From assembly GCA_963728945.1 (NCBI GenBank), contig CAVSMA010000001.1:837572-901571 (forward strand): 64,000 bases of DNA, in the 5' to 3' direction. The notes beneath the pieces are model-generated. The model did not search any database. It was not told the DNA's origin and was given only the letters and a program-made list of their open reading frames with translations. The position numbers and the translations under genes are program-made. Below, one piece after another: positions 22,003 through 64,000 of the stretch. Source of the DNA: an uncultured Actinomycetota bacterium. GTDB taxonomy: Bacteria > Actinomycetota > Actinomycetes > Mycobacteriales > CADCTP01. The first letter of the stretch is position 1. Each line of letters begins with the position of its first letter.

Positions 22003-22087
22003 TCCCCATTTGTCCTCTGGCGGCCCTGGTTGGGCAAGCCGGACGCCGATCAGCCTCCGCCGACTGGCCTCCCTTGTGCACGGCCGG

Positions 22088-37245: not shown

Positions 37246-37281
37246 CCGGACCCCGGGAGCACGATCGCTCCCGGGGTCCGG
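37246..37281 (-). terminator. stem-loop downstream of the antitoxin-like gene
   Basis: 15-bp perfect inverted repeat CCGGACCCCGGGAGC / GCTCCCGGGGTCCGG with a 6-nt loop, 13 nt beyond the stop at 37294. Confidence 0.55.
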
Positions 37282-37293
37282 AAAGTATCAACG

Positions 37294-37476: not shown

Positions 37477-37724
37477 GGTCGGCTCCTCCCGTGTGAGTGA
37501 TTTCACCCTCCTCCCCCTGTTCACCGCTCGCAACCGGACCGGAACGGACCGATTCGGGCGCCCGGCACTCGTCGGCCGGCTCGTCCCGGCGCCGCATAGC
37601 CGGCCCAGCGGCAGCCGGTCAGCCACGCCGGCGCGCCGGCCGCGACACGGGCAATATCAGGACACTCGCACCGAACCCGGGCGACATAGCATCTCCACCG
37701 CCGGCTCCTGCGGCGCGCGGCCCC

Positions 37725-38303
37725 TCAGACGTCGAAGTCCGGCGGAATGAAGGAGAAGACAGCCATGTCGTAGCTCTGTCCACCCCAGCGGGCCTTGTTC
37801 CGCAGCACGCCCTCGGCGACCGCTCCGGATCCCGCCGCAGCCGCCCGGCTAGCCGCGTTCGCCGTGACCATCGAGATCTCCACGCGATGCAGACTCAGCT
37901 GGCCGACACCCCAGCCGGCGAGCAACCGCGCGGCGGTCCGGGCGACGCCGCGACCCGTCGCCGACGTCCGTACCCAGTAACTCAGATTCGCCGACGAGCG
38001 CCGCCGGTCGACTCCCTCCAGCGAGCAAGTCCCGAGCAGGGTCCCGTCATCGCCGAGGACGACGAACGCGTAGAGCGTTCCCTTCGCCCAGGCGTCCCGG
38101 GCGAAGCGCGCCCACTCCTCCTGATCGGCGACGGTGGCATCCGGCCGCCACCAGGGCACCGTCCCCTTCAACTCCGCCGCCGACTCGAGCACCGCCTCGT
38201 GCAACGCGGCAGCGTGGTCCACGTCCAGCGGCCGCAACTCGATCCCGGCGCCACCCAGACGGACGTCGCGCGACACCTGCTGCTGGACTTCGGCTGAGGA
38301 CAT
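37725..38303 (-). CDS. GNAT-family N-acetyltransferase (RimJ/RimL-like)
   Basis: 192 aa. IELRPLDVDHAAALHEAV... and the acetyl-CoA motif WVRTSATGRGVARTAARLL. Confidence 0.85.
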   Translation of the reverse strand: MSSAEVQQQVSRDVRLGGAGIELRPLDVDHAAALHEAVLESAAELKGTVPWWRPDATVADQEEWARFARDAWAKGTLYAFVVLGDDGTLLGTCSLEGVDRRRSSANLSYWVRTSATGRGVARTAARLLAGWGVGQLSLHRVEISMVTANAASRAAAAGSGAVAEGVLRNKARWGGQSYDMAVFSFIPPDFDV

Positions 38304-38449
38304 CGCTGGATGCTAGCGATTCACATGGTGGGCCGGTGATCGACGTAGTAACGCCATTCGGTCGGGCTGCCGTCGATACGCAGAGCAGGGGCGGCTGCAT
38401 CACGTGGCGGGTCCGGCCCAGCCCGGACAGACCTTGCTAGGGTCGGGCC

Positions 38450-39655
38450 GTGCACGGCGACCGCTATTACGTTCCTGGATTGGATGGCGTTCGTGCCGTG
38501 GCAATTCTTCTGGTCCTCGGCCAACATGCTCCGACCAGGCCGCTCATCGACGGTTTCGTCGGTGTGACGGTGTTCTTCTGCCTGTCGGGGTTCCTCATCA
38601 CCACCCTATTGGTCCGCGAACTCGACGGCGGCACGATCGATGTGCGCGCGTTCTATCGCCGGCGCGTGGCGCGCCTCTGGCCGGCGTTGCTGACGGTCGT
38701 CGCGGTGACGGTCGTGGTGCTGCTCATAGATCGACGAGCATTTCCCGATCCGGTGCATCTCAGTGTCGGCCAGATCTTCGCACCCGCCGGTGCGGCGGTC
38801 GTATATACGACGAGCCTCTTCGACTGGTCCGGTCACTTCTTCGCTACGCAGGACTACCTCAACTTCACCTGGTCGCTGTCGATCGAAGAGCAGTACTACC
38901 TGCTGTGGGCATTCGCACTGCTCTTGGCCTATCGCCGCAACCCTAGGCTGTTCGCCGCGCTCACCGCGACGTTCATCGGGATCACCCTGGCGCTCAACCT
39001 CTACCTCGGACTGAGCCGAGAGGTGTTCTTCGATCGGCACGAGTACGTCGGGAGTGACACGAACGCTCTGCCTATCCTGGTCGGCTCATTGCTCGCGATC
39101 GTCGTTCACAACCATTGGTTGCCTCGTACGCTCCGATATCTTGCGCCCGGCGCGCTGCTGGCCGTTTTCCTCCTGCCCGTCCTCGCCTACCGGAACGACA
39201 CCGAGCGCACCTCCCTGGTGACCGTCGCTGGGACCGTGCTGGCGCTCGTCATGTTGATCGGAGTCCTGATACGACCGGGATCGGCAATTGGTTCGATGCT
39301 GGCGAGCGGCCCGATGCGGTGGCTCGGCGAGCGGTCGTATTCCATCTATCTCTGGAACGATCTGGCGCGCATCCTCATACTCAAGGCGCTTGGATATACG
39401 CTGCTCGGTGACGTCGTGTGGATCGTGGTGTTCGTCGTGGTGGCCGAGACCAGCTTCCGGTTCGTCGAGCGCCCGCTGCGGGCCAAATTCGCGCGGAGAT
39501 CCGGTGTGCCACGAACTCGGAGCGCCACGCCGCCGCGGCGGATGCGCCTGCCGCAGCTCACACACCGCCTCCATCTCCCGGCGAAGCCTGGCGCGGACAC
39601 CAGCCCGGCCGCCGTGGCCGATCCCTCGGAGCAGCTAGGCCAGGTACGGCCGTAG
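38450..39655 (+). CDS. acyltransferase family 3 (membrane O-acyltransferase)
   Basis: 401 aa. YVPGLDGVRAVAILLVLGQH...VTVFFCLSGFLIT signature and about 10 TM segments. GC is visibly lower than in the flanks. Confidence 0.85.
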   Translation: MHGDRYYVPGLDGVRAVAILLVLGQHAPTRPLIDGFVGVTVFFCLSGFLITTLLVRELDGGTIDVRAFYRRRVARLWPALLTVVAVTVVVLLIDRRAFPDPVHLSVGQIFAPAGAAVVYTTSLFDWSGHFFATQDYLNFTWSLSIEEQYYLLWAFALLLAYRRNPRLFAALTATFIGITLALNLYLGLSREVFFDRHEYVGSDTNALPILVGSLLAIVVHNHWLPRTLRYLAPGALLAVFLLPVLAYRNDTERTSLVTVAGTVLALVMLIGVLIRPGSAIGSMLASGPMRWLGERSYSIYLWNDLARILILKALGYTLLGDVVWIVVFVVVAETSFRFVERPLRAKFARRSGVPRTRSATPPRRMRLPQLTHRLHLPAKPGADTSPAAVADPSEQLGQVRP

Positions 39656-39850
39656 ATCAGGTTGCCCGCTCACGCCGTCCCAACCTGCCACCGGCTTCCG
39701 TTCGGGCGTCGCGTCGGCACGTACGCGGGTGCGGGTCGTGGGACACTGACGGCGGCTCCGGACGCCGACGAGGGACCAGAGCCGGCCTGTGGACCAGACG
39801 TGGACCAGAGCGGGTACGCGAGCGATGGTCGAGCGTGAAAGCCGCAGGTG

Positions 39851-39935
39851 GGAGGGCTCGCCTAGTGGCCGATGGCGGCGGTCTTGAAAACCGCTAGGAG
39901 CTTGCTCCTCGTGGGTTCGAATCCCACGCCCTCCG
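39851..39935 (+). tRNA. tRNA-Ser (anticodon TGA)
   Basis: Hand-folded. Acceptor GGAGGGC/GCCCTCC; anticodon stem GCGGT/ACCGC with loop CTTGAAA (anticodon TGA); long variable arm; T-arm GTGGGTTCGAATCCCAC. CCA is not encoded. Confidence 0.9.
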
Positions 39936-40589
39936 CACTTCGGACCATGTCAGCTCCAGCGCCGAGTCCAGGTCCAGAGCGCGCAGGCGGTCGGCTGTCG
40001 CCCCGGCCCATCTGCGGGCCAGCGCGAGCACCTGCGGCATGGTCGCGGCGTGGCATTCCTGGACGGACTCGACTCCTCGTTCGACTGCTGAGAGCAGCGG
40101 CAGCAGAGCGGCCCAGGTCTGCAGGTGACCACCGAGCGGGCCGTCGCGCTCCGGCCATCGCCGCGCCATCTGATCGTTGAGCTGTGGCAACCGCTCCACG
40201 CCGCGCCACATCGGGTCCGGGGCGGCGTACCGGACGACGCCGAGATGGCTGTGCAGCACTGCCGCGGTGCAGAGGAAGCACGGCTCGAGGGTGGTGTAAA
40301 GGGTGTGGTGGCGGTAGTCACCGGGCGGCACTGTGGCGAGCGCGTTGATCTCGGCGTGGGCGATGTAGCTGCCGGCGACGTGCCCCGCAGGGCCGGTCCT
40401 CTCGTTACTCCGATTTCGACCGGAGCTGACCTTCTCGCCGTTCGGATCGACGAGAACCGCTCCTACCGGGATGCTCCCGGTTTGGAACGCCTGCCATGCC
40501 AGCAGAAAGCATGGTCGCCACACCGGGTCCACGCATGCGAACGGGTCCGTCGGCGTCGCCACCACCACAGGAGCGTCCCACGGCCCCAC
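39894..40589 (-). CDS. nucleoside/tRNA-adenosine deaminase-like protein (CDA superfamily)
   Basis: IPVGAVLVDPNG...HAEINAL...LYTTLEPCFLCTAAV is the H(A)E / PCxxC zinc-deaminase signature with TadA-like spacing. There is a roughly 80-aa C-terminal extension whose last 14 codons run antisense through the tRNA-Ser gene. Confidence 0.75.
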   Translation of the reverse strand: MGPWDAPVVVATPTDPFACVDPVWRPCFLLAWQAFQTGSIPVGAVLVDPNGEKVSSGRNRSNERTGPAGHVAGSYIAHAEINALATVPPGDYRHHTLYTTLEPCFLCTAAVLHSHLGVVRYAAPDPMWRGVERLPQLNDQMARRWPERDGPLGGHLQTWAALLPLLSAVERGVESVQECHAATMPQVLALARRWAGATADRLRALDLDSALELTWSEVRRAWDSNPRGASS

Positions 40590-40627
40590 CGCGCCGAAGC
40601 CCAGGCGGTCATAGCTAGGGTTCCGGG

Positions 40628-40765
40628 ATGGATCAGCAGGGCGGCGCAGCCGACGGCCCGGCTCCGATCGTGGAGTTGGCGGCGATCACGGTGGACTGTC
40701 TGGACCTGCGGCCGATGATCGACTTCTACGCGCACGCGTTCGGCGCGCGGACCTTGCCGAGATGA
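40628..40765 (+). pseudogene. possible truncated N-terminal fragment of a VOC/glyoxalase gene
   Basis: A hand-translated 45-codon ORF, MDQQGGAADGPAPIVELAAITVDCLDLRPMIDFYAHAFGARTLPR*, looks like the first beta-alpha-beta unit of a VOC protein and then stops abruptly. Confidence 0.35.
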
Positions 40766-40827
40766 CCGCCGCCGCTGACCCAGTGAATGCGGCCGCGTCA
40801 GCCCCGTTGGGATGACGCGGCCGGTCG

Positions 40828-41430
40828 TCACGGGATGGCGGTCGCCCGGGCGTCCTCGGCGTCGAGTTGGCGCCCGGCGTGGCGGAGTGAGAAGGCCAGC
40901 ATGATCTGCGTGAATCCGCGGATCAGTGCCATGAAGCCGACCCAGAACAGGATCAGGAACGCCCGGTTCGCCAGGTTGAACTCGCGGTCCGAACTGGACA
41001 CCCAGAAGGCCAGCAGGATCAGCAGGATCCCGGTGACCAGGCCTATCCACCAGAACCGGTTCTCGTCCCGCGAGGCCACGCCCCGCACGATCTCGAAGGC
41101 CCCGTAGAACAGCAGGATGAGACCAAGTACGGACGCGAGAGCGAAGAACGTGTTGATCGGCCGGATGAACGCCCACAGACCACCGAGCAGGAAGATGACC
41201 CCCATCGCGTAGTGCAGGAACTTCCAGCCTCCGCCGACGGCGCCGGCGAAGACCACCTCGTTGATCCCGGCCGCGATGAACAGGATGCCCAGCAGTATGC
41301 CGACCGTCGTCAGCGAGGTGATGTTCGCGCGCAGCACCAGCCACGCGACCACCAGCCAGGCGAGGCCGGATATCAGCAGGACCCACCAGTAGCGGCTGCC
41401 TTCCCGCAGGAGCACGCGTCCCTCGAACAT
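40828..41430 (-). CDS. HdeD-family (DUF308) membrane protein
   Basis: 200 aa with six TM helices in the repeated DUF308 pattern (WWVLLISGLAWLVVAWLVL; LGILFIAAGINEVV; LLFYGAFEIVRG). Confidence 0.8.
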   Translation of the reverse strand: MFEGRVLLREGSRYWWVLLISGLAWLVVAWLVLRANITSLTTVGILLGILFIAAGINEVVFAGAVGGGWKFLHYAMGVIFLLGGLWAFIRPINTFFALASVLGLILLFYGAFEIVRGVASRDENRFWWIGLVTGILLILLAFWVSSSDREFNLANRAFLILFWVGFMALIRGFTQIMLAFSLRHAGRQLDAEDARATAIP

Positions 41431-44264: not shown

Positions 44265-45017
44265 TCAGAGCAGGTCGGCCTGCAGCACCGCGCGCATCGT
44301 CGCCAGCGTCGCGGTGCCGCCGAGGTCGGCGAACAGCTCCGCGCTGGTGATGCCCATCGCGTCCAGGTCGGGCAGCGCCCGGGTGGCGGCCGCGGCCGGG
44401 AGCACGCACTTGGTCAGCGCGACGCCCTCGGCGTTCTGCTCGACGTACTCTTCCAGGCTCCCGACCGACGCCCGGCACAGCGTGAACCGGCCGCCCTGGG
44501 CTCGGAGCCGGTCGTTGCGGATCGGCGGCACGGTCACCACCTCGACCCCGTCCGCCCGCGACCACACCGGGTTGTCCAGGTGCAGCACCCAGATCGCCAC
44601 GTGCGCGAACCGTTCCGGCGTACGGGTCAGGTGGTCGGCGAAGGCGAAGAACGCGGCCACGTACGGGCTGGTGGACCAGTCGAGCAGCCGGGTCGGCAGC
44701 CCGTAGTGCTGGCCGAGGGCCCAGAGCGTGCGGTCCTCGGCCAGCAGCGCCGGGTCGACGCCGGCCTCCTCGCAGCCACGCCGCCACTCCTGCACCAGCC
44801 GGTGCCAGAGCGCCATCCGGCGCTCGGTCGGCACGGTCGCGAAGCGACGGTCGAAATGGGACCGAAGGTCGTAGTCGGCGTCGGCGGAGCCGCGGAACAG
44901 GTACCGGCCGTGCCGGAAGATGCCGTCGCCGAACAGCTCGACGAACGCGTCCCGGGTGAACTCGGTCCAGTCGCCGAACTTCAGCACCCGGACCGCTGAC
45001 CCTGGCCGGATGGTCAC
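44265..45017 (-). CDS. FRG-domain protein
   Basis: 250 aa. YLFRGSADADYDL (the name-giving FRG motif), GLPTRLLDWSTSPYVAAFFA and NDRLRAQGGRFT are the conserved FRG-domain blocks (PF08867, from memory). The GTG start overlaps the upstream stop (GTGA at 45014-45017). Confidence 0.72.
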   Translation of the reverse strand: MTIRPGSAVRVLKFGDWTEFTRDAFVELFGDGIFRHGRYLFRGSADADYDLRSHFDRRFATVPTERRMALWHRLVQEWRRGCEEAGVDPALLAEDRTLWALGQHYGLPTRLLDWSTSPYVAAFFAFADHLTRTPERFAHVAIWVLHLDNPVWSRADGVEVVTVPPIRNDRLRAQGGRFTLCRASVGSLEEYVEQNAEGVALTKCVLPAAAATRALPDLDAMGITSAELFADLGGTATLATMRAVLQADLL

Positions 45018-46576
45018 GACGCGCTCCGCACCGAGGTCAGCCCGACGCTGCGGGCCAGCACCGGGTGCACGACGTAGTTGTCGACCTCCGGGGGCAGGGT
45101 GAACTCCTCCACGTCGCCGAGCGCGTAGAACCGCCGCTCGCCGCGCTCGTCGAGATAGCCGAGCAGGCCGTTCTGCCAGAGCACCGAGCTGATCTCGGTC
45201 GCGCTCTCGAAGTGCGGGTTGGCGATCTCCTTGAGGCTGTCGAGGTCCGCCCGCGGGATCACGTCCGCCTTCACCAGCCGCAGGAACGAGCGCATGTCCT
45301 CGACGATCGTCGTGAGGTATGCCTGGTCGCCGGTGAACGCGCCGGAGAAGTCATACCGGCCCGCGTTGGCCGGCATCAGGTCGGCGGCGATCTGGTTCGC
45401 GCACTGGGCCAGCTGGGAGTCGCCGAACTGCTTGGCGCATCGGGCGACCGTGTCCTTGAGCACCAGCTCGGGCAGCTCGTCCCGGCCGGCCTTGCGGTGC
45501 CTGAGCACCTCCTGGGACAGCGCGTTGCCGAGCGAGACCACGTCGCGGGGGATCATCCGGGTGTGCCGGAGCAGGTAGTCCTCGATCGCCTCCGTGCCGC
45601 CCCAGTCGTCGGCGACCGAGCCGATGCCGAGCCAGTCCCGCACCGACACCGCGTGCGGCGGCTGGCGCATCAGCGCGCTGCGCGGCAGCCGCTCGAGCTT
45701 CTGCCGGAGCAGGTGCAGCAGTGCGTCCTTGTCCCAGGACAGCAGCCGGATGTGTGGCTCGTTCAGGTAACGCGGCGCGTGCTCGGACCGGTAGACCGCG
45801 GACATCACGATGTCCCGGATGGACACCACCACGTGCAGCCGGCCGCCCAGGCGCGGATCCCGCAGCAGCCGCATCACCTGGTAGAACAGGCCCTCCTGGC
45901 AGCGCAGCCAGTGCATCGGCGCGTGCCCGAACTCCTCGTCCACGGCGTCCAGGTAGAAGTAGACCGGCTTGGTCGTGCCGAGCACCTCCGCCAGCAGGTC
46001 CTTCAGGTCGTCCCAGAGCGGGTCGTTGAGGTAGGCGGTCAGCTGCCGAGCGGTGTCCTGTTCGTTGACCACGTTGGCCAGCTCGGAGTAGACGTCCCGG
46101 GGCCGGCGCACCTCGCCGAGCAAGCGGCCGTAGCCGTCCAGGAGCTCCTGCCGGTGCTCCTCGCTGACCTGGTGGCGCAGCTCCCGGTGCAGCAGCAGGT
46201 GGGTGGTCAGCGCCCGCAGGATCGCCCGGTCCCAGACCTGCGCCCACTTCTCGGCGAGCACCTGGCCGCTGAACCACTGTCCGGCGGTGACGATCACCTC
46301 GGTGGTCGGCGGGTCGTACTCGGGCAGGTGCGCGTAGACCGACTCCTCGTGCGCCTGGTGGTCCTGCAGCCGTCGCATGTAGACGGTCTTGCCGGCGCCG
46401 AGCTTGCCGGCGATCACCCGCACCTTGGAGTCGTCGGCCCGGGTGGCCAGCCCGCCGAACCCGGGGTCCGCGTCGAACTCGACGAACTCGCTGAGCACGT
46501 CGTCCAGCTCGGCCCGCGATCCGTCCGGGCTGCCGAACAGGCCGGCGACATCGACAGTCCCCTGGTTGGCCTTCAT
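45014..46576 (-). CDS. P-loop NTPase (STAND/NACHT-like), uncharacterised
   Basis: 520 aa. Walker A IAGKLGAGKTVY, Walker B PVYFYLDAVDEEF, then HVVVSIRD (sensor-like strand) and a roughly 250-aa helical C-terminal region. No TM segments or repeats recognised. Confidence 0.75.
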   Translation of the reverse strand: MKANQGTVDVAGLFGSPDGSRAELDDVLSEFVEFDADPGFGGLATRADDSKVRVIAGKLGAGKTVYMRRLQDHQAHEESVYAHLPEYDPPTTEVIVTAGQWFSGQVLAEKWAQVWDRAILRALTTHLLLHRELRHQVSEEHRQELLDGYGRLLGEVRRPRDVYSELANVVNEQDTARQLTAYLNDPLWDDLKDLLAEVLGTTKPVYFYLDAVDEEFGHAPMHWLRCQEGLFYQVMRLLRDPRLGGRLHVVVSIRDIVMSAVYRSEHAPRYLNEPHIRLLSWDKDALLHLLRQKLERLPRSALMRQPPHAVSVRDWLGIGSVADDWGGTEAIEDYLLRHTRMIPRDVVSLGNALSQEVLRHRKAGRDELPELVLKDTVARCAKQFGDSQLAQCANQIAADLMPANAGRYDFSGAFTGDQAYLTTIVEDMRSFLRLVKADVIPRADLDSLKEIANPHFESATEISSVLWQNGLLGYLDERGERRFYALGDVEEFTLPPEVDNYVVHPVLARSVGLTSVRSAS

Positions 46577-50151: not shown

Positions 50152-50637
50152 GTGACCGCGGGGCCGACCGTCCGGGTGGCGGCGGACGCCGACCTGCCGG
50201 CACTGGACCGGGGGCTGCCGACCGGGCGCAACGACGCGCACCGGGCGTTCCTGGCTCGGCAGGCCGCAGGTGAGGTGACCTACCTGGTCGCGTGGCGCGG
50301 TGACGCGCCGGTCGGGGTCGGCGTCGTCCGGTGGACCGGTCGCGGCGGCTCGCCCTACCCGGAGCTGAGCAACCTGCACGTGCCGCCGCCGCTGCAGAGC
50401 CAGGGCATCGGCACCGCGATCGTGCACTTCGCCGAGGACGTCGCCCGCTCCCGGGGGCGGGCAGGGCTGGCGATCGGCGTGGACGAGGACAACGTCCGGG
50501 CCGCGGCCCTGTACGAGCGGCTCGGCTACGTCGACACCGGCCGCCGCTGGACGGGCTCGTACACCTGGTATGACGAGTCCGGCGTCGAGCACGCGGAGAC
50601 CGAGCACGTGCGGGTGCTCACCCTCCTGCTGCACTGA
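50152..50637 (+). CDS. GNAT-family N-acetyltransferase
   Basis: GTG at 50152. LHVPPPLQSQGIGTAIVHFAEDVARSRG (acetyl-CoA binding Q/RxxGxG/A) and ALYERLGY. Confidence 0.8.
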   Translation: MTAGPTVRVAADADLPALDRGLPTGRNDAHRAFLARQAAGEVTYLVAWRGDAPVGVGVVRWTGRGGSPYPELSNLHVPPPLQSQGIGTAIVHFAEDVARSRGRAGLAIGVDEDNVRAAALYERLGYVDTGRRWTGSYTWYDESGVEHAETEHVRVLTLLLH

Positions 50638-52336
50638 GGCAGCGGGCCGGCAGCTCGAACCAGCGCAGGTGCTCGAAGTCGGCGGAGACCAGGTCGCCCG
50701 GACCCGGCAGGTCCACTGTGGACGGTTCGGCTAGGAGGCGCCGCGCCTCGGCCAGGTAGCCGCTCAGCGCCGTGTCCGGTGCCCGGTCGTCGTGCCGCGG
50801 GTAGCGCATCTCCCCGTCCGGCCCGTAGGTCACGTGCGCCAGCCGCAGCGGCGGCTCGGCCGCGGCCCGCCGGTGTCGCCACAGCCCGGTCTCCGGCTCG
50901 AACCGGTAGTCCGGCAGCAGCCGCCAGCCCTCCCGCGCCACCAGCGCGACCGCCTCGAGGATGTAGTCGAAGACGGTCTCGGAGATGAAGTAGTTGAAGT
51001 TCACCCGCACCCAGCCCGGCTTGATCCCCTCGCAGCCGCCGGCGATCTCCCGCTCGAACTCGTGCGAGCGGTCGAGGTCGATGCCCAGCAACCGGTGCCC
51101 GTACGGCCCGGCGCAGGAACAGCCGCCCCGGGACTGGATGCCGAACAGGTCGTTGAGCACGGCGACGACGAAGTTGTGGTGCAGGTAGCGCCCGCTCGGC
51201 GCGCGGACCACGAACGAGACGATCGACAGCCGCTCCGCCGCCAGGTTGCCGAGGATCTCGATCGCCGGCTCGTCCCGCCACGCCTCGACCGCGCGGCGCA
51301 GGTAGTACTCCTCGTGGGCGCGGATCGTCTCCAGCCCGACGGCCTCCTTGAGCTGGAAGACCAGCCCGGCCCGGATCGAGTCGACGATCGCCGGCGTGCC
51401 GCCCTCCTCCCGCAGCACCGGGTCGGTCAGGTAGCGGTGCTCGGTCGGGTTGACGTACGCGACCGTGCCGCCGCCGGGGGTGTCGGGCACCCGGTTGGTC
51501 ACCAGCTCCCGGCGGACCACGAGCACGCCGGGTGTGGACGGGCCGCCGATGAACTTGTGCGGGCTGAGGAACACCGCGTCCTTGCCGGCCATGTCGATCC
51601 GGACGTACGGCGCCGCCGCGGCGAAGTCGTAGAAGGACAGTGCGCCGTGCCGGTGCAGCAGCGTGGAGATCGCCGTGGTGTTGCTGACGATCCCGGTCAC
51701 GTTGCTCGCCGCCGAGAACGAGCCGATCCGCAGCGGCCGGCCGGCGTGCGCGGCCAGCTCGGCGTCGAGCCGGTCGAGGTCGATGTGGCCGTCGGCGTCC
51801 TCCGGGATCACCACGACGTCGGCGATCGACTCGCGCCAGGGCAGCTCGTTGGAGTGGTGCTCGTACGGGCCGATGAACACGACCGGACGCCGCTCCGGCG
51901 GGAGGATCTCGGCCGGCCGGTAGCGCTCGTCCGCCGCGCGCAGGCCGAGGATCCCGACCAGCTTGTTGATCGCGCCGGTCGAGCCGGAGCCGCAGAAGAT
52001 GACCAGCGTGTCGTCGTCGCCGCCGACCGCGTCCCGGATGATCCGGCGGGCGTCCTCCCGCAGCCGCGTGGTCTGCAGCCCGGTGCCGCTGGACTCGGTG
52101 TGCGTGTTCGCGTAGCGGGGCAGCACCTCGCAGCGGATGAAGTCCTCCAGGAAGCCGAGCGCCCGTCCGGAGGCGGTGTAGTCGGCGTACGTCACCCGCC
52201 GTGGACCGTACGGACCGGGCACGACCTGGTCGTCGCCGATGACCGACTCGCGGATCCGGCGCAGCAGCGCGGACTCGGCCGGTGGGGTCTCCGGGGGGTG
52301 GGCGCCCCGGAGGTGGGTCTCGGCTGGCGTGCTCAT
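50618..52336 (-). CDS. class V aminotransferase-fold PLP enzyme (NifS-like, long form)
   Basis: ATG at 52336 inside the 1010-aa track ORF. YADYTASGR, HHSNELPW, and the PLP-lysine region FLSPHKFIGGP. Confidence 0.85.
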   Translation of the reverse strand: MSTPAETHLRGAHPPETPPAESALLRRIRESVIGDDQVVPGPYGPRRVTYADYTASGRALGFLEDFIRCEVLPRYANTHTESSGTGLQTTRLREDARRIIRDAVGGDDDTLVIFCGSGSTGAINKLVGILGLRAADERYRPAEILPPERRPVVFIGPYEHHSNELPWRESIADVVVIPEDADGHIDLDRLDAELAAHAGRPLRIGSFSAASNVTGIVSNTTAISTLLHRHGALSFYDFAAAAPYVRIDMAGKDAVFLSPHKFIGGPSTPGVLVVRRELVTNRVPDTPGGGTVAYVNPTEHRYLTDPVLREEGGTPAIVDSIRAGLVFQLKEAVGLETIRAHEEYYLRRAVEAWRDEPAIEILGNLAAERLSIVSFVVRAPSGRYLHHNFVVAVLNDLFGIQSRGGCSCAGPYGHRLLGIDLDRSHEFEREIAGGCEGIKPGWVRVNFNYFISETVFDYILEAVALVAREGWRLLPDYRFEPETGLWRHRRAAAEPPLRLAHVTYGPDGEMRYPRHDDRAPDTALSGYLAEARRLLAEPSTVDLPGPGDLVSADFEHLRWFELPARCLSAAGG

Positions 52337-52495
52337 GCCCTGACGGTAGAACCCCGGGAAACCGTCCGGGGCCGCCTCCTTCCGTGCCGTCCCCGCCGTC
52401 CTCATTACCAACTTGTGTCCGGGTCCTGACAGATGCTTCACCTCCGGTAGGAAATACTCCGGAACTGACCGGCCACTCCCCGTCTTGGAGGCGAC

Positions 52496-53521
52496 ATGGC
52501 ACCGCCCGCGAGCTCCGGCCGCGGTACGGCCCGATTCGCCCGGGTGAGGCGCACGGTCACCACGCTCGCCGCGTTCCTCGGACTGGTCGTGCTCGCGGTC
52601 GCCGGCACACCGGGCGGCGCCGGTGACAACCCGACCGCCGTTCCCGAGGCGGCGGCGGCGGAGCCGAGCCCGACACCGTCGCCGTCGGCCTCCACGCCGG
52701 CCCACCCGCTCGCGGCGCCGGCGCCGACCACTCCGGTCACCACCTCGGCGCCGAAGCCGCGGCCGGTCGACCCGTACGAGGCCGTGCAGACCGCGGCCCG
52801 GCGGATCACCTCCGGCGCCGACGGGTTCGCCTCGTTCACGCTGCTCGACCGGGTCAACGGCAGGCGGATCGGCGACCCGCGCTCGACCCAGCCGACGTTC
52901 TCCGAGTCGACCATCAAAGCCTGGCTGGCTGCCGACCTGCTCGCCACCCGCGCGGCCGCCGGTGTGCGCCTGACCCCGTACGAGACCGCGCGGATGACCG
53001 CGATGATCCAGCGGTCCGACGACAACGCGGCCGAGGTGATCTGGCGCTGGCTCGGTGCGGACGAGTCGATCGAGGACATGATCAGGATCTGCCGGCTGCA
53101 GGACACCACGGTGTATCCGGACTGGTGGTCGAAGACCGAGATCTCCGCGCGCGACCTCGCCCGGCTGGGGGACTGCATCGTCCCGGGGAAGAACAAGTTC
53201 CTCTCGCCGACCGTGGGCGCGCCGCTGCTCGCGCTGATGCGCAGCGTCGACCCGACCAACGCGTTCGGCATCCAGCAGGCGCACCCGGCCGGTCCCGGCG
53301 TACGGATCGCGGTGAAGAACGGCTGGACCTTGCACGGCAGCTCCGAGGGCACCGTGTGGAACGTCAACTGCCTCGGCATCTGGGGCGCCGGCAACCGCTG
53401 GGTGCTCGCGGTGACCACCCGCTTCCCGGCCACCCGGGGCCTCGACTACGGGGCCGGCCTCTGCCGCCGGATCACCACCGCGGTCCTCCCGCTCACCCAC
53501 CCGGTCAGACCGTCCAATTAG
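52496..53521 (+). CDS. class A beta-lactamase-related serine hydrolase, secreted/anchored
   Basis: N-terminal anchor plus a Pro/Ala/Thr linker. S-x-x-K as SESTIK, SDN-like QRSDDNAA, and KTG-like VKNGWT. Confidence 0.7.
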   Translation: MAPPASSGRGTARFARVRRTVTTLAAFLGLVVLAVAGTPGGAGDNPTAVPEAAAAEPSPTPSPSASTPAHPLAAPAPTTPVTTSAPKPRPVDPYEAVQTAARRITSGADGFASFTLLDRVNGRRIGDPRSTQPTFSESTIKAWLAADLLATRAAAGVRLTPYETARMTAMIQRSDDNAAEVIWRWLGADESIEDMIRICRLQDTTVYPDWWSKTEISARDLARLGDCIVPGKNKFLSPTVGAPLLALMRSVDPTNAFGIQQAHPAGPGVRIAVKNGWTLHGSSEGTVWNVNCLGIWGAGNRWVLAVTTRFPATRGLDYGAGLCRRITTAVLPLTHPVRPSN

Positions 53522-53575
53522 GAGAGTCGACCTCGGATGATGCGATCCAACATCACGTGGCACTAGTCTGACATC

Positions 53576-53857
53576 GTGCAGAGCAGGAGTGTGGACACGG
53601 CGTACCGGCGGGCGGTCGGCAAGCGGATCCGGGTGTGGCGGGTGCTGCACGAGCGGTCCCAGGACGAGCTGGCCGCCGAGGCGGGCGTGACGAGAAACTT
53701 CGTCAGCGCGATCGAGCGCGGCGCGCAGGGACTGGACGCGGTGCGGCTGCGCCGGCTGGCCATGGCGATGGACATGAGCCTCGGCGAGCTGCTGGCCGAC
53801 CCGGAGCCGGTCGGCGGCCCCGTCCCGAGCAGCCCGGGCCGGCCCGGCCGGCGCTGA
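53576..53857 (+). CDS. XRE-family helix-turn-helix regulator
   Basis: GKRIRVWRVLHERSQDELAAEAGVTRNFVSAIERGAQ is the HTH_3 signature. 93 aa. Confidence 0.8.
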   Translation: MQSRSVDTAYRRAVGKRIRVWRVLHERSQDELAAEAGVTRNFVSAIERGAQGLDAVRLRRLAMAMDMSLGELLADPEPVGGPVPSSPGRPGRR

Positions 53858-55987: not shown

Positions 55988-56077
55988 GGAGGCTTCGCCT
56001 AGTCCGGTCTATGGCGCCGCACTGCTAATGCGGTTTGGGTTAACTGCCCATCCCGGGTTCGAATCCCGGAGCCTCCG
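55988..56077 (+). tRNA. tRNA-Ser (anticodon GCT)
   Basis: Hand-folded. Acceptor GGAGGCT/AGCCTCC; anticodon stem CCGCA/TGCGG with loop CTGCTAA (anticodon GCT); long variable arm; T-arm CCGGGTTCGAATCCCGG. Confidence 0.9.
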
Positions 56078-56374
56078 CCCTCACCAGCACGCTGTCCCTC
56101 ACCCAAACGGAGCCGAAGAGGCGACGGAGAAGCTGCGGTTGCAGTTCTGGTTGCAGTCTCCTCGTGTCGTCGGACAAGGCCTTTCCCGATCGGCCGCACG
56201 CGACGTCGAGGAGTCAACGCCCGCCGGTCAGGCCGACGATCCATGCGGACCTTGCCCAAGCCCACCTTCAGGCGTAGGTCGACTGCCGTGTCGTCAGACG
56301 CTCACCACGCTTCATGACGAAGAGCCACCCGAGGGCGAGATATCCAGCGTAGTGTTTCCATACGCTGCAGTCTG

Positions 56375-57715: not shown

Positions 57716-58999
57716 ATGCGGAAGCCCGAGAAGAAGCAGTACGCGCAGGCCCTACTCGACTCACGTGCGAAGGGAGGACCAGCTCCGCTTAGAGCACACC
57801 GGGTCTACGAGGTCGAGGTCGAGCGCAATCTCGATAAGATCCTCGACTGGCCCTCGTCGCAGTGTGTTGCCTGCCGACGTCGGATCGCGACGACGCAGGG
57901 TCCGTCCGAGAAGGGCTCAAACGCGCCCTTGTGCAGTCCCTGTGATGCACAAGTTCCCTGCATCGACTGCGGCAAGCCGCGTGGTTCGAGCCGGCCCGCC
58001 ACTCCTCCCGACACTCGCCGAGATCCTCGAATCGACAGGCGGGCGCAGTGTGCGTCCTGTGCGGAGGCCGAAGACCTCGGAGCCACCCCGGCCACGGTCC
58101 GACGGGCACGTCTGCGTCGACGCATGAGGGCGCTCGCCGTGCGTACCTTGGGATGGGCTGCGACGATCGCCTTGGTCGCGGGCGTTGGAGTGGCGATCGC
58201 TCGACCCTGGGAGAACGACCACAGGGATGTGGCTGGGAGCCGACCCATCGGAGGCTCGACGGCCCTCGGCAGCCACAGGACCGGCGGTGGCTCCGGCGGT
58301 ACTGGGCATATAGGTGGCGGCGACAGCGGCGCCGGCTCGGGTACGACCAGCGGGTCCGGAGGTACGTCGTACGGGCCCGGACTCGTGCCGACCTTCCGAT
58401 GCCGGGACGGCTCGCTGAGTTACGCCCAACACAGCCAAGGAGCGTGCTCCCACCACGGTGGAATCGGAGGTCCGGCGAGCGCAGCCGTACCCACGTCGAC
58501 CTACGCCTCGCCCGAGACGTCCGATCCCTCTTCGGGGGATATTGGCCTCGACTTCTGCGACGACTCTGTGGACGTATGCCTCGATCAGCCCGGACTTGAC
58601 GAGGTACCGCGAGCTCGGGCCGCCGCCGAAGTCCTGCACAGCTACTACGCCGCCCTGAACAAGCGTGACTACTCGTTCGCATACTCGCTGCTTAACGAGC
58701 AACGACGGCGTCAGATCACCGAGCAGGACTGGTCGGCGTCTCAGGTGGGATTGACCTACTCGCACGTCCACATCCTGGAGTTCAGGACCGCAGGCTCGGC
58801 GGCTGTGGTGTCGCTGTCGTATCTGTCGAATCTGTCGAGCGCCGATATGCCAGCGGACACCTGTTGGGCGTGGACACTGACCCGGGACATCACCAGCGAG
58901 AGCGATTCTCCGCGGATCGGGCCGCCGATCGAAGTCAAGAAGGTCGCATGCACCGCAGCCCAGGAAGCACTCAGTCTTCAGTCTCTCGGCTCCCCTTGA
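57716..58999 (+). CDS. membrane-anchored protein with Cys-rich (Zn-ribbon-like) N-terminus, Gly-rich linker and DUF3761 domain
   Basis: ATG at 57716. CVACRR...CSPCD...CIDCG...CASC cysteine pairs. TM helix WAATIALVAGVGVAIA. CRDGSLSYAQHSQGACSHHGG matches the DUF3761 motif. Confidence 0.6.
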   Translation: MRKPEKKQYAQALLDSRAKGGPAPLRAHRVYEVEVERNLDKILDWPSSQCVACRRRIATTQGPSEKGSNAPLCSPCDAQVPCIDCGKPRGSSRPATPPDTRRDPRIDRRAQCASCAEAEDLGATPATVRRARLRRRMRALAVRTLGWAATIALVAGVGVAIARPWENDHRDVAGSRPIGGSTALGSHRTGGGSGGTGHIGGGDSGAGSGTTSGSGGTSYGPGLVPTFRCRDGSLSYAQHSQGACSHHGGIGGPASAAVPTSTYASPETSDPSSGDIGLDFCDDSVDVCLDQPGLDEVPRARAAAEVLHSYYAALNKRDYSFAYSLLNEQRRRQITEQDWSASQVGLTYSHVHILEFRTAGSAAVVSLSYLSNLSSADMPADTCWAWTLTRDITSESDSPRIGPPIEVKKVACTAAQEALSLQSLGSP

Positions 59000-61325
59000 C
59001 GTAGGTGTGAAGAATTCCTTTTGCCGGCGTCCGGACGCTCCCAGACCTCGTGGCCGTACGCCTTGAGCCGCTGCCGAGCTGTTTCCAGCTCGTCTTCAGT
59101 AAAGAGGACAGGGAACGGCTCTCGCAGAACAAGCGCCTCCATCGTGAGGTCCAGGCGGCCCCGTTCCCACAGCGCGGTGAATCCCTGCGAGACCGCGGGC
59201 GCGTGCAACAGTTGCCTCGCCGCCGCTAGGCCGCCATGGTCTGTAACCATTCGCAAGAACAGCGTCGCATTGTACCCAGCCTCACTCCTTGCCTTCCTGT
59301 ATACGTCCACCATGGCTGCGTGAAAGGCTCGCTCGATGTCAATATCGACTGAGTCAGGTGGGTGGTGAAGAGCGCGCTTGGAGGTTGCAGCCGCTGTCGG
59401 CCTCTCCGACGCGTCATCTCCAGGTTCGCCAGCGAGCGACTCGGCTGGGGAGACTGCGTCGCTCTCCGGCGATCCTGCATCATCATTCGTATCTGCGTCC
59501 GCGTCGGTCAATTCATCGTCCTCGGGAACGTAAGAGGACGGCGTGTCCGGGTCCGGGTCGAAGAGCGGCTTGTCCATAACCTTGCCAATTAAATGAAGCA
59601 TACGCGAGCGACGATCCGAAAAGAACGAGTCGAAATCTGCCCTGCGTAGGGCCGATGGGTCCAGTAGATGTGTGCTGAGCACCGCGTCGAGCTCGGCGCC
59701 GGACAAACCTGATGTCGACTCGACCGTCCGGACATACTCTCGGGGCGACCGGCCCCCAATCTTTCGGTTGGTCGTGGCTGAGAGTGGAGTCTTGTTCACT
59801 ATGCTCTCGCACCGGGCGTGGTCTATCCCGTTCTTCTGGCACCATGCCTTCGGAAAGATGTGGTGGATATCTACAGCTAGGTCCAGGAATGAAGCGAGAT
59901 GGATCGGCTGCCGGTAACCCAATCCATGCAGCCTTCGCGCATGAGCAGCGCATAGATCCCCTTGTAAGCGGCGCTGTTCCGTGTGCGCAAGGTGAGCAAT
60001 CGTGAGGCCTGGAAGTTTGCCTCGGCTGCCGTCGCTGGCTCCGGTTCCCCGTCGCGAATCCAAGGAACCACTTGTTCCAGGTCGCGCGCGAAGCGGGTCT
60101 CCGTGGTCCCCCCGTAGAGCTCACCCAAGACACCTCGCCAGTACCAGATCTGCACTTCCGCGCCGCCGCATGCTCGTCAGCTCTGGAGCCAAGGGTGGCT
60201 CGGATTGCGGCGAGCGGAACGAGCTGCGTCTGGTATGGCAGGTCAGAGGCGAGGAAGATGTGTTCTTGCGCCAGAAAGCCGGCTGCCCAGAGCAGCGCGG
60301 CCTCCACCTTGGTGCCTGTTCGATGTACTCGGCGAGTGTTAGTCGAAGAATATCCTTTCGCTTGCAAGTGATGCCCGGTGCCTGACTAGGGTCCTTGCCC
60401 GCGGCCAGGCGTTGCTCACGTCGTGCTCGTGAAGCGAGGAGAGTGACCGCTTGCAGGAAGTCCGTGTTCTCCACTGCTCGAAGTACGGGCTTGGCGGCGA
60501 GCCGCGCCTTCCGCGCCTTCCAGTCATCATTGAGGCGGAAGTCCTTGTGCGTCTTGTCGCCTGCGAAGGTCGCGGTCAACAACTCGAAGACGTTGAGGGC
60601 AACGCCTCCGGTATTGACCTTCTCGAAGACGGTACAAACGGCCTCTTTTGGGGTCGACTTCTTCAGCACAATGACCGGCAGGGTGTAACTAATTATGTTG
60701 TTGAGGACCTTGTCGTAGAAGCTGTTCCATAGGTCGATTCTATGTGGATCGTGTGCCGTGTACTGTCCCATCCAATGGAAGATCTTCGGCATGTCGAAGG
60801 CAAGCCAAAGAGGAAATACACCGGAGGCACATTGCTTCTCGGTAGTGGAATAGTCTTCTTTGATGCCCCGACCGAAATCCTCACGCAGAACCAGGTCTCG
60901 GGGTGCCGAAACGATAGCTTCCTCGCGGTCACCCTCGTCACCCAAGGCGCGCTCGATGTCAATCAGATACCATCGTTCCAGCTTCTTGCCACGGGGATCC
61001 GTCGTCGATACAGACTTCTGGGACTTGAGCGCTTGGTAGAGTGACGTCAGCCGCTGCTGGCCATCAAGTAAGGAGATGGTCGGGTCGAGACCGTCGAGGG
61101 GCCGACTCCGGCCAGCGGCTTGGGCGCGAAGTCGAAGTCCTCTCCACCGGTCTCGAGCATCATGATGACGCCGACGGGATAGCCGAGCGTGATGGTGGCT
61201 AGAAGGCTAACGATTCGGGGATCGTCCCATTTCCACTCCCGTTGAAAATCCGGAAGTTGAACCTTGCCCATGTCGACGTCGGTCAACATCGTGCCGAGGT
61301 TCAGGTCAGGACTGTCGAAGGGCAC
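58978..61325 (-). pseudogene. GmrSD-family type IV restriction enzyme (DUF262 + DUF1524 His-Me finger), disrupted by at least 4 frameshifts
   Basis: Five consecutive reading-frame segments join into about 780 aa. QLPDFQREWKWDDPRIVSLL (61325-~61105); LLDGQQRLTSLYQAL...FEKVNTGGVALNVFELL (~61105-~60312); VEAALLWAAGFLAQEHIF (~60312-~60157); QIWYWRGVLGELYGG (~60157-~59912); DIHHIFPKAWC...NKTPLSATTNRKIG (~59912-58978). Confidence 0.78.
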
Positions 61326-61600
61326 GAGTTCTCCCTGCCGTGAGGGTCCGCCGAGGCTGTCGAGTTCGATCTAGTGCTGTGGTCGTGTCGTACGCAGGGC
61401 ATGCGTAGAGTGGCTAACCGTAACTAACGGACGGTGCGATCGCAGCCAAATGACGCGTAGGAGCCCAGGTCACCCGACCGGTGCCGCTTCGCGGAGACTT
61501 TGCGTGACTGCCTCCGCGGGCGGGACGAGTTTGACAGGATCGGCTGTCGCGTCAGACCTGGTGCTGCCGCGCGTCGGATCGATGAGGGGGTAGCGCAAGG

Positions 61601-64000
61601 ATGCGTGCGGACAGCGACCGGTGGGTCGAGGTCACGCCGTCCGAGTTCGCACACGAGCGTGCGGGGCTTGCTCTCGTCCGTGAGCTGCTGCCTGACCGTG
61701 CGCCGTACCGAGCCTGGTCCAACTTCGAGTTCCGGGATACTTCAGGCAAATGGCACGAGGTCGACCTGCTCGTGCTGGGGGAGTCCCGACTGCATCTGGT
61801 CGAGCTGAAGTCGTACGCGGGCCGGATCGAGGGTGACGCTTACCGGTGGCGGCGCGGTCGACGGTCTGAGGACTCGCCGCTGCTGCTTACCCGGAGAAAG
61901 GCCCAGCGGCTGTCCAGCGTGCTCAAGGATGCGCTGCGGGAGATCGATCCGACGGTCAGCACGCGGGTGATTCCCTGGGTCCAGGAGTGCGTCTTCCTGC
62001 ACCACCCGGACACCAGAGTGGCGTTGCCACCGGCTCACCTGACCGACCTCTACGGCATTGACGGGCAGGAGCGCCGGTCGGGCCTTCCCTCGATCCGGGA
62101 CCGGCTGCTGGAGCCGGCGACGGACCGGCTCGCGCCGCGACTGATGCAGAACGACGGCCAGCTCCTAGTCGCGCTATTCCGCCGGATCGGCCTGGCTCAG
62201 CGGCGCGAACAGGAGGTCGGTTCCTGGCGGATCATCGGGCCGGCGGAGGCAGAGGGCGACGGCTGGCAGGACTGGCCGGCCGAGCAGCGGATCGCCCGGG
62301 ACCCAGTCCGGATCCGGTTCACGGTGACGCCGCCTGGCACGTCCCGCGAGGACGCTGACCGCAGCCGGGAGCTAGTCGAGCGGGAGTACCGGCTGACCTC
62401 TCGCCTGTCGCACGACGGCCTGCTCCGGCCGCGCGATCTTGTCGAGCACGAGCTCGGTGTCGGCCTGGTCTACGAGCGGGACGACTCCTTCCGACGGCTC
62501 GACTTGTGGCTGAGCGACCGCAGCGATGCCTTGACGCTCCCAGTCCGGCTCCAGCTCGTCCGCCGGGTGGCGGAGGCGCTCGGCTACGCCCATGCGAATC
62601 ACGTGGTCCACCGGGGGTTGACTCCGACCGCGGTCCAAGTCAAGGAAGAAGCGAACGGGCGTGTCCGGGCACTCCTCGGTGACTGGCGGCTCGTGGGCAG
62701 CGACGTGCCGGGCACTCGCTCGACTGGCGGCGCCACCAGACTGTTCGCGGCGTTGGAGGGACCGCAACGGCCCGACCCCGAAGCGGTGAGAGCCGAGGTG
62801 TACCGGGCGCCGGAGGAACGCTGGGACCCCGCTGCCGACCGGGTTCGGCTTGACGTCTTCTCCCTCGGTGCACTGGCCTACTTCGTCATCTCGGGCCGGC
62901 CGCCCGCGTCGGACCAGGCGGACCTGCGTAGCCGGCTGGCCCGCGAGGGCGGACTCGACCTGGCCGGCGATGCCCCGGACGCGCCGTACGCGGTACGGCG
63001 GCTGGTGCTCGAGGCCACCCGAGGTGTGGTCAGTGAGCGACTGCCGGACGTCGCCGCGTTCCTGCACCGGCTGGACGACGCCGAGCGGGCCGCTGACCCC
63101 GAGCCGGCGGACGACGACGACCCGCTGGAAGCGGTCAAGGGCCGGCTGCTCGCCGGCCGGTTCGAGATGCTCGGCCGGTTGGGTACCGGCTCGACCGCCG
63201 CCGGCCTGCTCGTCGCGGACCATCGCGCTGACGGCGAGAAGCGAGTGCTCAAGGTGGCGCTCGACGACGCGGCTGCCCGCCGGCTGGAGAGCGAGGCCGA
63301 GGTGCTGGCGCCGCTGCGGCACCCCCGGCTGGTGCGGTTGATCGAGGGACCGCTGTGGATCGGCGGCCGTACGGCGCTCCTGCTCGAGCAGGCCGGCGAT
63401 CAGACTCTCGCCGACGTCCTCCGGGAGCGGCCACGGCTGTCGCTTGACCTGCTGGAGCGCTGGGGTGTCGACCTGCTCGAGGCGGTGGTCGAGCTGGACC
63501 GGGCCGGCGTGGATCACCGGGACCTCAAGCCGGCGAATTTGGGCGTGCGGGAGCAGCGAGGCAATCGGACGAAGCATCTGGTGCTCTTCGACTTCTCGTT
63601 GGCCCGGGCCGGCGCGTCCGCGGTGGACGCTGGCACGCCGCCGTATCTGGATCCGTTCATCGGGACCTCCGAGCGCCCCCGGTGGGACTCCGCGGCCGAG
63701 CGGTACGCGGCGGCGGTGACGCTGTACGAGATGGCGACCGGCCGGATGCCGGTGTACGGCGATGGTCGGACCCCTCCGGACATGACCCGGGCGGAGGCGC
63801 GGGTGGAGCCGGGCGCGTTCGATCCGAGTGTGGCCGGCGCTCTGAGCGCCTTCTTCCGCCGTGCGCTCCGGCAGGACTTTCGGGAGCGGCACGGGACCGC
63901 AGCCGACATGCTCGCCGAATGGCGCGCCGCCTTCAGCGCGCCGATCGCCACGGTTCCGGACGATGCCGACTCCCGGGCGGCGGCGGCCACTCTGACGACG
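61601..64000 (+). CDS. pglW: NERD domain + degenerate kinase + Ser/Thr kinase protein, PglW-like (BREX type 2 / Pgl); 3' end outside the window
   Basis: Absent from the ORF track (no stop before the window end). Hand translation from ATG 61601 is open for 800 codons. NERD: WHEVDLLVLGESRLHLVELKSYAG. Kinase-like 1: VVHRGLTPTAV, YRAPEE, DVFSLGALAY (no catalytic Asp). Kinase 2: LGTGSTA..RVLKVA, VDHRDLKPANLG, LFDFSLA, GTPPYLDPF. Confidence 0.7.
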   Translation, partial: MRADSDRWVEVTPSEFAHERAGLALVRELLPDRAPYRAWSNFEFRDTSGKWHEVDLLVLGESRLHLVELKSYAGRIEGDAYRWRRGRRSEDSPLLLTRRKAQRLSSVLKDALREIDPTVSTRVIPWVQECVFLHHPDTRVALPPAHLTDLYGIDGQERRSGLPSIRDRLLEPATDRLAPRLMQNDGQLLVALFRRIGLAQRREQEVGSWRIIGPAEAEGDGWQDWPAEQRIARDPVRIRFTVTPPGTSREDADRSRELVEREYRLTSRLSHDGLLRPRDLVEHELGVGLVYERDDSFRRLDLWLSDRSDALTLPVRLQLVRRVAEALGYAHANHVVHRGLTPTAVQVKEEANGRVRALLGDWRLVGSDVPGTRSTGGATRLFAALEGPQRPDPEAVRAEVYRAPEERWDPAADRVRLDVFSLGALAYFVISGRPPASDQADLRSRLAREGGLDLAGDAPDAPYAVRRLVLEATRGVVSERLPDVAAFLHRLDDAERAADPEPADDDDPLEAVKGRLLAGRFEMLGRLGTGSTAAGLLVADHRADGEKRVLKVALDDAAARRLESEAEVLAPLRHPRLVRLIEGPLWIGGRTALLLEQAGDQTLADVLRERPRLSLDLLERWGVDLLEAVVELDRAGVDHRDLKPANLGVREQRGNRTKHLVLFDFSLARAGASAVDAGTPPYLDPFIGTSERPRWDSAAERYAAAVTLYEMATGRMPVYGDGRTPPDMTRAEARVEPGAFDPSVAGALSAFFRRALRQDFRERHGTAADMLAEWRAAFSAPIATVPDDADSRAAAATLTT

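Follow-up and report, generated by a model that had tools for sequence, protein, structure and literature searches.

The open frame at the end of the window (the whole 64-kb stretch of DNA analysed here) belongs, with a probability of about 0.9, to pglW of a high-GC actinomycete and makes up the 5′ ~57% of this gene, which encodes the multidomain kinase peculiar to the type 2 BREX (phage growth limitation, Pgl) systems, by which actinomycetes defend themselves against phages. Translation from ATG 61601 on the + strand runs through 800 codons without a stop, as the sequence-only reading had found by hand, and the frame is still open at 64000. That reading had attributed the absence of the frame from the ORF listing to the want of a stop, and this explanation holds: the listing omits it because it runs past the window end, and any ORF caller that requires a stop would miss pglW, as the window ends inside the gene. 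The open stretch begins at 61586, right after a stop codon, and the first start codon in it is ATG 61601, preceded by GAGGGGG...AAGG. The GC content by codon position (0.78/0.51/0.86) fits a coding frame, and ~0.003 open frames as long as 800 codons would be expected from base composition over the whole window. Since high-GC DNA often contains long antisense frames, real proof of a gene comes from the domain matches. An antisense ORF of 506 aa at 62372-63892 was rejected as a GC-rich shadow frame, as both the PglW profile matches and the codon-position GC favour the + strand frame.

The NERD, protein-kinase and PglW HMMs proposed as a check were run on the 800-aa fragment, and PF08378, Pkinase and NF033442 all matched. 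NCBIfam NF033442 (BREX_PglW) gave 934 bits against a cutoff of 990, with residues 6-792 lying colinearly on model positions 1-784 of 1391; the score falls below the cutoff because the window ends about 56-57% through the protein. Full-length scoring was done with intact orthologues (1395-1399 aa, 63-86% identical to the window product), three of which (P0001, P0002 and P0003; 86%, 80% and 63% identical) scored 1308, 1288 and 1306 bits. A composite of the window and its closest copy, a metagenomic contig referred to here as L081, was dropped because the called L081 pglW product is out of frame over ~360 aa. The PADLOC PglW model matched at E=5.8e-285, against 1e-34 or weaker for PADLOC models other than PglW. 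At E<=1e-20 we found 256 homologues, many of which NCBI names PglW, with a typical length of 1380-1400 aa; the closest are all PglW proteins of that length with a BREX-2 pglX downstream. Identity to any full-length public protein is at most 86%, in addition to the one near-identical but fragmentary copy in L081; the top amino acid identities were 66% in the genome-collection scan and 63% in the metagenome scan, and the nearest named genomes of the clade are Micromonospora and Catellatospora (64%). Together with the pglX, pglY and pglZ genes that follow the L081 copy, the profile matches and the orthologues above the cutoff bear out the earlier identification of the frame as pglW.

Table 1. Features of the pglW region, in window positions.
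Feature	Positions	Strand	Evidence
Conserved leader of 228 nt, presumed promoter region	61373..61600	+	95.6% identical to L081 (10 mismatches/228 nt)
pglW, N-terminal 800 codons of an expected ~1400	61601..64000	+	Stop-free translation, NF033442, PADLOC PglW, orthologues
NERD (PD-(D/E)xK-type nuclease-related) domain, aa 17-127	61649..61981	+	Pfam PF08378, E=2.3e-14
Pseudokinase, kinase-fold, ~aa 196-500	62186..63100	+	Segment alone matches solved kinase domains
Hanks-type Ser/Thr kinase domain, ~aa 514-785	63140..63955	+	Pfam Pkinase, E=2.2e-26 (aa 522-725)

The domain order given in the sequence-only reading was recovered (Table 1), and the motifs it quoted are all in place: EVDLLVLGESRLHLVELKSYAG at residue 53, HRGLTPTAV at 337, GDW at 360, APE at 403, VLKV at 549, HRDLKPANL at 639 and DFS at 664. 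The frame does begin with a NERD-type domain, in which E53, D55, E68 and K70 are present; in an alignment of 59 family sequences, which also supplied the other residue columns given here, they are invariant wherever a family member has the residue (58-59 of 59 aligned rows). The kinase-fold segment that follows (aa 196-500) found its best match among solved kinases in M. tuberculosis PknI (E=1.8e-6), with the catalytic loop and the DFG region aligned, and Pfam gave a weak Kdo match at aa 261-359. Here the HRD Asp is replaced by Gly, the catalytic-loop Lys by Thr and the catalytic-loop Asn by Ala, while APE is kept. The earlier description of an HRGLTPTAV loop with Asp and Lys replaced and of a retained APE therefore stands, but its placing of the DFG equivalent at GDW does not: in the alignment to solved kinases, PknI among them, LLGDWR pairs with LLADFG, so that the equivalent is D361-W362-R363 and not G360-D361-W362. 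The Asp of the DFG position is thus kept in the window copy, as it is in 37 of the 59 family members; Gly takes the place of the HRD Asp in 49 of 59.

In the second kinase domain the catalytic motifs are all intact (LGTGSTA loop, K551, E565, HRDLKPANL with D641, K643 and N646, and D664-F-S), in agreement with the VLKV lysine, HRDLKPANL and DFS first read from the sequence and with the Pfam match. Across the 59 aligned sequences K551, E565, D641, K643, N646 and D664 do not vary or hardly vary (D641 is kept in 58). Its PDB matches include StkP and PknB at about 1e-13 to 1e-14; no PglW structure was found in the PDB, the matches being generic kinase domains only. With every catalytic residue present, domain 2 is predicted to be an active Ser/Thr kinase, and, judging from the alignment, the degeneracy of domain 1 and the intactness of domain 2 are family-wide features. 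PglW of S. coelicolor A3(2) has the same N-terminal order, with NERD at 12-130, an atypical kinase at 195-490 and a Ser/Thr protein kinase at 537-704 (PMC4365076), against 17-127, ~196-500 and 514-785 in the window product; SCO6628 was compared by its published coordinates. Its first kinase domain is atypical and without an ATP site, and the protein autophosphorylates, a K677A mutant being devoid of both autophosphorylation and phage resistance (PMC4365076). The PglW architecture, inactive kinase domain included, has been described in a 2026 NAR survey together with a proposal that the protein acts as a sensor hub (PMC12839542). Streptomyces PglW copies are only ~37% identical to the window product; for a RefSeq-annotated plasmid copy the alignment takes in residues 6-793, with 37% identity.

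The rest of the system had been expected beyond the window, and the relatives point to the same arrangement. None of pglX, pglY and pglZ occurs upstream within the window, and Pfam, PADLOC and NCBIfam found no PglX, PglY, PglZ, BrxD or BrxHI among the plausible ORFs of 40.8-61.3 kb. L081, which was reached via a protein search and is the only near-identical locus available, shares 97.3% nucleotide identity with window positions 61373-64000, and its pglW is directly followed by pglX, then pglY, then pglZ. The pglX matches NF033451 (BREX-2 PglX; 739 and 532 bits for two fragments), the PglY fragments have NF047891 as their best match, and PglZ reaches 578 bits with NF033446 (PglZ_2) against a cutoff of 200. 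In relatives at least 45% identical, and at loci with enough sequence, pglX was found in 38/40, pglY in 29/30 and pglZ in 20/26, the order pglW-X-Y-Z being kept in nearly all of them. The C-terminal half of the protein is colinear in P0001 and also in L081, though there across frame changes.

A true PglW orthologue may nevertheless be an orphan or a decaying gene, in a system incomplete or rearranged beyond the window that no longer works as BREX type 2; we consider this quite unlikely. All that is left of pglY behind pglX in the second-closest relative (L082, 86% amino acid identity) is a remnant of 54 aa; hipBA comes next, and after it a convergent brxHI and a kinase-BrxD fusion gene, so system completeness varies among lineages, and pglX is absent from the examined sequence of two further loci (L018 and L024). 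In L081, ~10 frame changes are spread across pglW, pglX and pglY; they resemble long-read assembly errors and could also be real decay. A GmrSD-type gene adjoining pglW is frameshifted, which indicates some decay in the island. Against such a reading, the 800 codons in the window are intact and the invariant catalytic residues are all present, and of the L081 frameshifts only that at window position 62774 can be checked, where the frame of the window is unbroken. Moreover, 50 of the 60 coding substitutions between the window and L081 (83%) fall at third codon positions, indicating ongoing purifying selection, and pglX lies directly downstream in nearly all of the relatives counted above.

A NERD-tandem-kinase from some other defence system, such as MADS Mad6, a variant of DndF or an MkoA-like protein, is a very improbable identity for the gene, and so is a defence kinase that stands alone, the alternative that the sequence-only reading had kept. 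NERD, pseudokinase and kinase do occur together in the Mad6, MkoA and PD-T4-6 models and in some DndF proteins (PMC12839542), and a second gene of L082 joins a NERD/pseudokinase-like part to a BrxD-like C-terminus. Mad6 and the NERD-kinase DndF variants have the module of NERD, inactive kinase and active kinase in common with the window gene (PMC12839542), but their C-terminal halves and partner genes are different; among relatives of the window gene, the C-termini are of the PglW type and the partners belong to BREX-2. The Mad6 model (NF047741) gave 228 bits, below its cutoff of 460, and 225-239 bits with the full-length orthologues. The PglW models are ahead by at least four-fold (in NCBIfam, 934 bits against 228), with the wide gap in PADLOC E values given above and an alignment to the PglW model that is colinear from 1 to 784. 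With PglW-specific models so far ahead and relatives that carry pglX, pglY and pglZ, the stand-alone alternative was set aside. Actinomycetes encode many Hanks kinases and spurious long frames are common at 72% GC, as the 506-aa antisense frame illustrates, yet a housekeeping Ser/Thr kinase or a chance frame is hardly credible, being refuted by the NERD, pseudokinase and kinase domains with their PglW-specific profile match and by the third-position bias against L081, as well as running counter to the coding-type GC by codon position and the low-GC island beside a tRNA gene.

The low-GC stretch in question starts at a tRNA-Ser(GCT) gene and has pglW at its end. Similarity to L081 ends abruptly upstream of ~61373, which marks the left edge of the shared segment and of the conserved leader (Table 1). 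A simple promoter and terminator scan of 61.0-61.7 kb, which takes in this leader, found nothing, and in particular no sigma-70 consensus. The search for att-like repeats of the tRNA-Ser 3′ end and for other repeats across 55.9-64 kb gave short, chance-level matches only. Two weak PADLOC matches upstream were rejected as defence genes: one to mad2, where Pfam gives only a weak match to a spermine-synthase-type methyltransferase, and one to DndA/SspA in a long frame at 50618-53650 which, by the GC3 plot, is not one frame but two different ones.

The accessory genes for the BrxD ATPase and the BrxHI helicase are found in about 90% of type 2 systems (PMC12839542). The plasmid NZ_CP130719.1 of Streptomyces sp. 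NBC_01334 exemplifies the six-gene form (pglW, pglX, pglY, pglZ, brxD and brxHI), and it has the same order of pglW followed by BREX-2-type pglX, pglY and pglZ as the closest relatives of the window gene. On this plasmid, brxD and a DEAD/DEAH helicase gene come right after pglZ, whereas in L081 the gene after pglZ is on the opposite strand and brxD/brxHI do not directly follow. A tblastn search with the plasmid BrxD and BrxHI and the L082 BrxHI had no match in the 64-kb window, and PADLOC found neither among the ORFs scanned in 45-61.6 kb. In S. coelicolor the pgl genes form two separated pairs (PMC4365076), in contrast to the colinear, single-strand pglW, pglX, pglY and pglZ of the window clade. 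It is possible, if doubtful, that this lineage makes do with four colinear genes, pglW-X-Y-Z, as a minimal system that lacks BrxD and BrxHI, or alternatively that it has an orphan sensor-kinase pglW. Such a four-gene system would lie in an island associated with tRNA-Ser that has no recognisable integrase and contains a decayed GmrSD-type auxiliary nuclease. Even if true, either arrangement would differ only modestly from type 2 BREX and would not amount to a new kind of system.

If the gene is pglW and continues as its relatives do, ~600 further codons would encode an RNAP alpha-CTD-like domain, three winged helix-turn-helix modules and an inactive STAND (iSTAND) module, followed on the same strand by pglX, pglY and pglZ, for a BREX-2 N6-adenine methyltransferase, a P-loop ATPase of the BrxC family and an alkaline-phosphatase-fold protein, respectively. 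From the literature, PglW may serve as a sensing and signalling hub, in which the C-terminal DNA-binding and iSTAND modules would sense phage DNA or the way it is modified. The predicted active kinase would then autophosphorylate and probably also phosphorylate partner proteins, and this phosphorylation may shift the PglX/PglY/PglZ machinery away from self-methylation and towards restricting phage replication. The pseudokinase is most likely a regulatory scaffold for the active kinase, and the NERD domain may supply a nuclease effector as a back-up.

PglW and type 2 BREX are already known and well described, so the finding is correct but ordinary; it has little importance beyond annotation and opens no new questions. 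The pglW identified here marks a tRNA-Ser locus of a high-GC actinomycete as the site of a BREX type 2 defence island, and one more intact and diverged PglW is a slight gain for comparative data on the constrained residues of the family.

The pglW fragment, the first 800 codons of a gene that is still open at the end of the window, keeps its reading frame intact and is under purifying selection. Translation bore out the uninterrupted 800 codons from ATG 61601 reported in the sequence-only reading, and each motif quoted there was found at the position given. The open stretch starts at 61586, right after a stop codon, and ATG 61601 is the earliest start codon in it, with a purine-rich GAGGGGG...AAGG on its 5′ side; the frame was missing from the ORF list only because it runs past the window end. 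GC by codon position was 0.78/0.51/0.86, the coding type for a 72% GC sequence, and base composition alone would give about 0.003 stop-free frames as long as this one in the window. As shadow frames are often long in such high-GC DNA, we place the main weight on the domain evidence.

Pfam detected a NERD domain (aa 17-127, E=2.3e-14), a protein kinase domain (aa 522-725, E=2.2e-26) and, between them, a weak kinase-like Kdo match (aa 261-359). Residues 6-792 were colinear with positions 1-784 of 1391 in the NCBIfam PglW equivalog NF033442, scoring 934 bits, just below the curated cutoff of 990 bits because 44% of the model falls past the window end; intact orthologues 86%, 80% and 63% identical scored 1308, 1288 and 1306 bits. 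The PADLOC PglW model matched at E=5.8e-285. The family that scored next after PglW was Mad6, the MADS kinase, with 228 bits (cutoff 460). The earlier proposal of a pglW from a BREX type 2 (Pgl) system is thus backed by the PglW models, the domain architecture and the synteny of relatives.

Residue conservation was assessed in an alignment of the fragment with 58 full-length homologues (59 rows). The NERD residues E53, D55, E68 and K70 were invariant, and in the second kinase domain the LGxGSTA loop, the VLK lysine K551, E565, the HRDxKPxN motif (D641, K643, N646) and DFS (D664) were invariant or nearly so and all present in the window, in agreement with the intact VLKV, HRDLKPANL and DFS motifs first described. 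The first kinase-like domain is degenerate family-wide, the HRD Asp being replaced by Gly in 49 of the 59 sequences; searched alone, it matched solved kinase structures, the top one being Mycobacterium tuberculosis PknI (E=1.8e-6). Its degeneracy had been recognized correctly, but the DFG equivalent is not GDW, since the PknI alignment gives D361-W-R, a small register shift. No PglW structure was found in the PDB copy searched. The fragment encodes the NERD, pseudokinase and kinase domains and retains every catalytic residue that is invariant in the family.

The same architecture has been published for Streptomyces coelicolor PglW (Hoskisson et al. 2015, PMC4365076), which has a NERD domain, an atypical kinase domain that lacks an ATP site, and a kinase of the Hanks type. 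That protein autophosphorylates, and its K677A variant loses both autophosphorylation and phage resistance (PMC4365076). K677 is probably the catalytic-loop lysine and the counterpart of K643 here, judging by position from a Streptomyces plasmid PglW, whose HRDIK lysine is K679, rather than from SCO6628. A 2026 survey (PMC12839542) gives the N-terminal part of PglW as NERD-REase, pseudokinase and active kinase; behind these come an alpha-CTD-like domain, a set of three wHTH modules and a STAND domain that is inactive. The feature is a standard member of a curated, previously described family.

Features in and around the low-GC stretch that reaches pglW
Feature	Position	Strand	Remarks
Second GC dip	37000-41000		66-68% GC
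tRNA-Ser(TGA)	39851-39936	+	Within second GC dip
FRG-domain protein gene and adjoining 520-aa ORF	44265-46576	-	FRG-domain protein 250 aa, E=3e-19
tRNA-Ser(GCT)	55988-56079	+	GC drop starts right after
Island ORF, 354 aa	56375-57439	+	Codon-position GC coding-like
Island ORF, 504 aa	57485-58999	+	Codon-position GC coding-like; sub-threshold DUF3761 match
GmrSD/DUF262-type gene	58978-61325	-	Divergent from pglW; N-terminal domain split over two frames
pglW fragment	61601-64000	+	Stop-free over 800 codons

Over 55.8-61.5 kb the GC content is 60-66%, down from about 73%. A GC drop right after a tRNA gene commonly marks an acquired island, and the stretch at tRNA-Ser(GCT) suggests one. Pfam found no integrase in its ORFs, and the tRNA 3′ end is not repeated within the window. 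Apart from the GmrSD-type gene and the DUF3761 match, Pfam, NCBIfam and PADLOC placed none of the island ORFs in a family. The GmrSD-type gene has the look of a pseudogene: positions 3-49 (QREWKW) of the GmrSD_N model match in one frame and positions 56-198 (DGQQR) in another, with one or more further frame changes beyond. Further on, a 'DIHHIFP...NKTPLS' segment looks HNH/DUF1524-like by eye, without a Pfam match. Enzymes of the GmrSD type are known to accompany BREX as auxiliary nucleases (PMC12839542). Elsewhere, in core-GC DNA, the FRG gene directly follows, with a 4-nt overlap, a 520-aa ORF that weakly matches AAA_16/NPHP3_N (STAND-like NTPase), and the pair might be a small defence-type module; the second GC dip may be another small acquired segment.

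Upstream of pglW, the window contains nothing similar to PglX, PglY, PglZ, BrxD or BrxHI. A protein search returned a 1004-aa product 99% identical to the C-terminal half of the query, encoded on a near-identical metagenomic contig (L081), whose DNA matches window 61373-64000 at 97.3% identity, with a gap of one base. Homology ends sharply at ~61373 (L081 ~1585), 228 nt 5′ of the pglW ATG, and to the left the two are unrelated even by tblastx, so the flanking cargo of the BREX module differs between two closely related strains. Downstream of pglW, L081 carries pglX in two fragments (BREX-2 PglX model, 739 and 532 bits), pglY in three, with the BREX-2 PglY model as top match, and a pglZ matching PglZ_2 (578 bits, cutoff 200). 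About 10 frame changes, roughly one per kb, affect pglW, pglX and pglY there (L081 1813-13346). The first, an additional G within a G/C run at window 62774, is the only one within the window's range, and at this site the window's frame, not that of L081, agrees with the family; moreover, 50 of 60 coding substitutions relative to the window fall at third codon positions. Both observations suggest that the fragmentation is probably a long-read assembly error rather than decay, although this is unproven. In L081, pglZ is followed by a gene of opposite orientation; brxD and brxHI may therefore be missing or lie elsewhere.

In 38 of 40 loci from relatives of at least 45% identity, taken from genomes and metagenomes, pglX begins ~1.8 kb past the counterpart of residue 800, and where enough sequence was available pglY was present in 29/30 and pglZ in 20/26, the misses being mostly loci where insertions move genes out of range. 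The annotated plasmid of Streptomyces sp. NBC_01334 (NZ_CP130719.1) has the full type 2 order of pglW, pglX, a PglY-sized gene, pglZ, brxD and a helicase. Three added genes (hypothetical, AAA family ATPase, hypothetical) lie between its pglW and pglX (20145-23559 of locus L163), and the PglY-sized gene is annotated only as "hypothetical protein". In the relative that ranks second in closeness (L082, 86% aa identity), the locus is rearranged (L082 11201-17614). There, pglX precedes a PglY remnant of 54 aa, a hipA/HTH toxin-antitoxin pair (hipBA) and two convergent genes, one encoding a BrxHI-like helicase 60% identical to a plasmid BrxHI, the other a kinase-BrxD fusion that joins a PglW-like NERD/pseudokinase region to a BrxD-like C-terminus. 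System completeness therefore differs between lineages. We retain a doubt of roughly one in ten that the system in the window's genome is complete. From the relatives, we infer that the window's pglW would have a C-terminal sensing half and pglX, pglY and pglZ as partners.

In the mechanism proposed for type 2 BREX from published work, the C-terminal DNA-binding and iSTAND modules of PglW would sense phage DNA or its modification state. The pseudokinase would serve as a scaffold with a regulatory role, and the NERD domain may provide a back-up nuclease. PglW would then signal by autophosphorylation, and probably also by phosphorylating partner proteins, and this signalling would control the methyltransferase, ATPase and phosphatase machinery.
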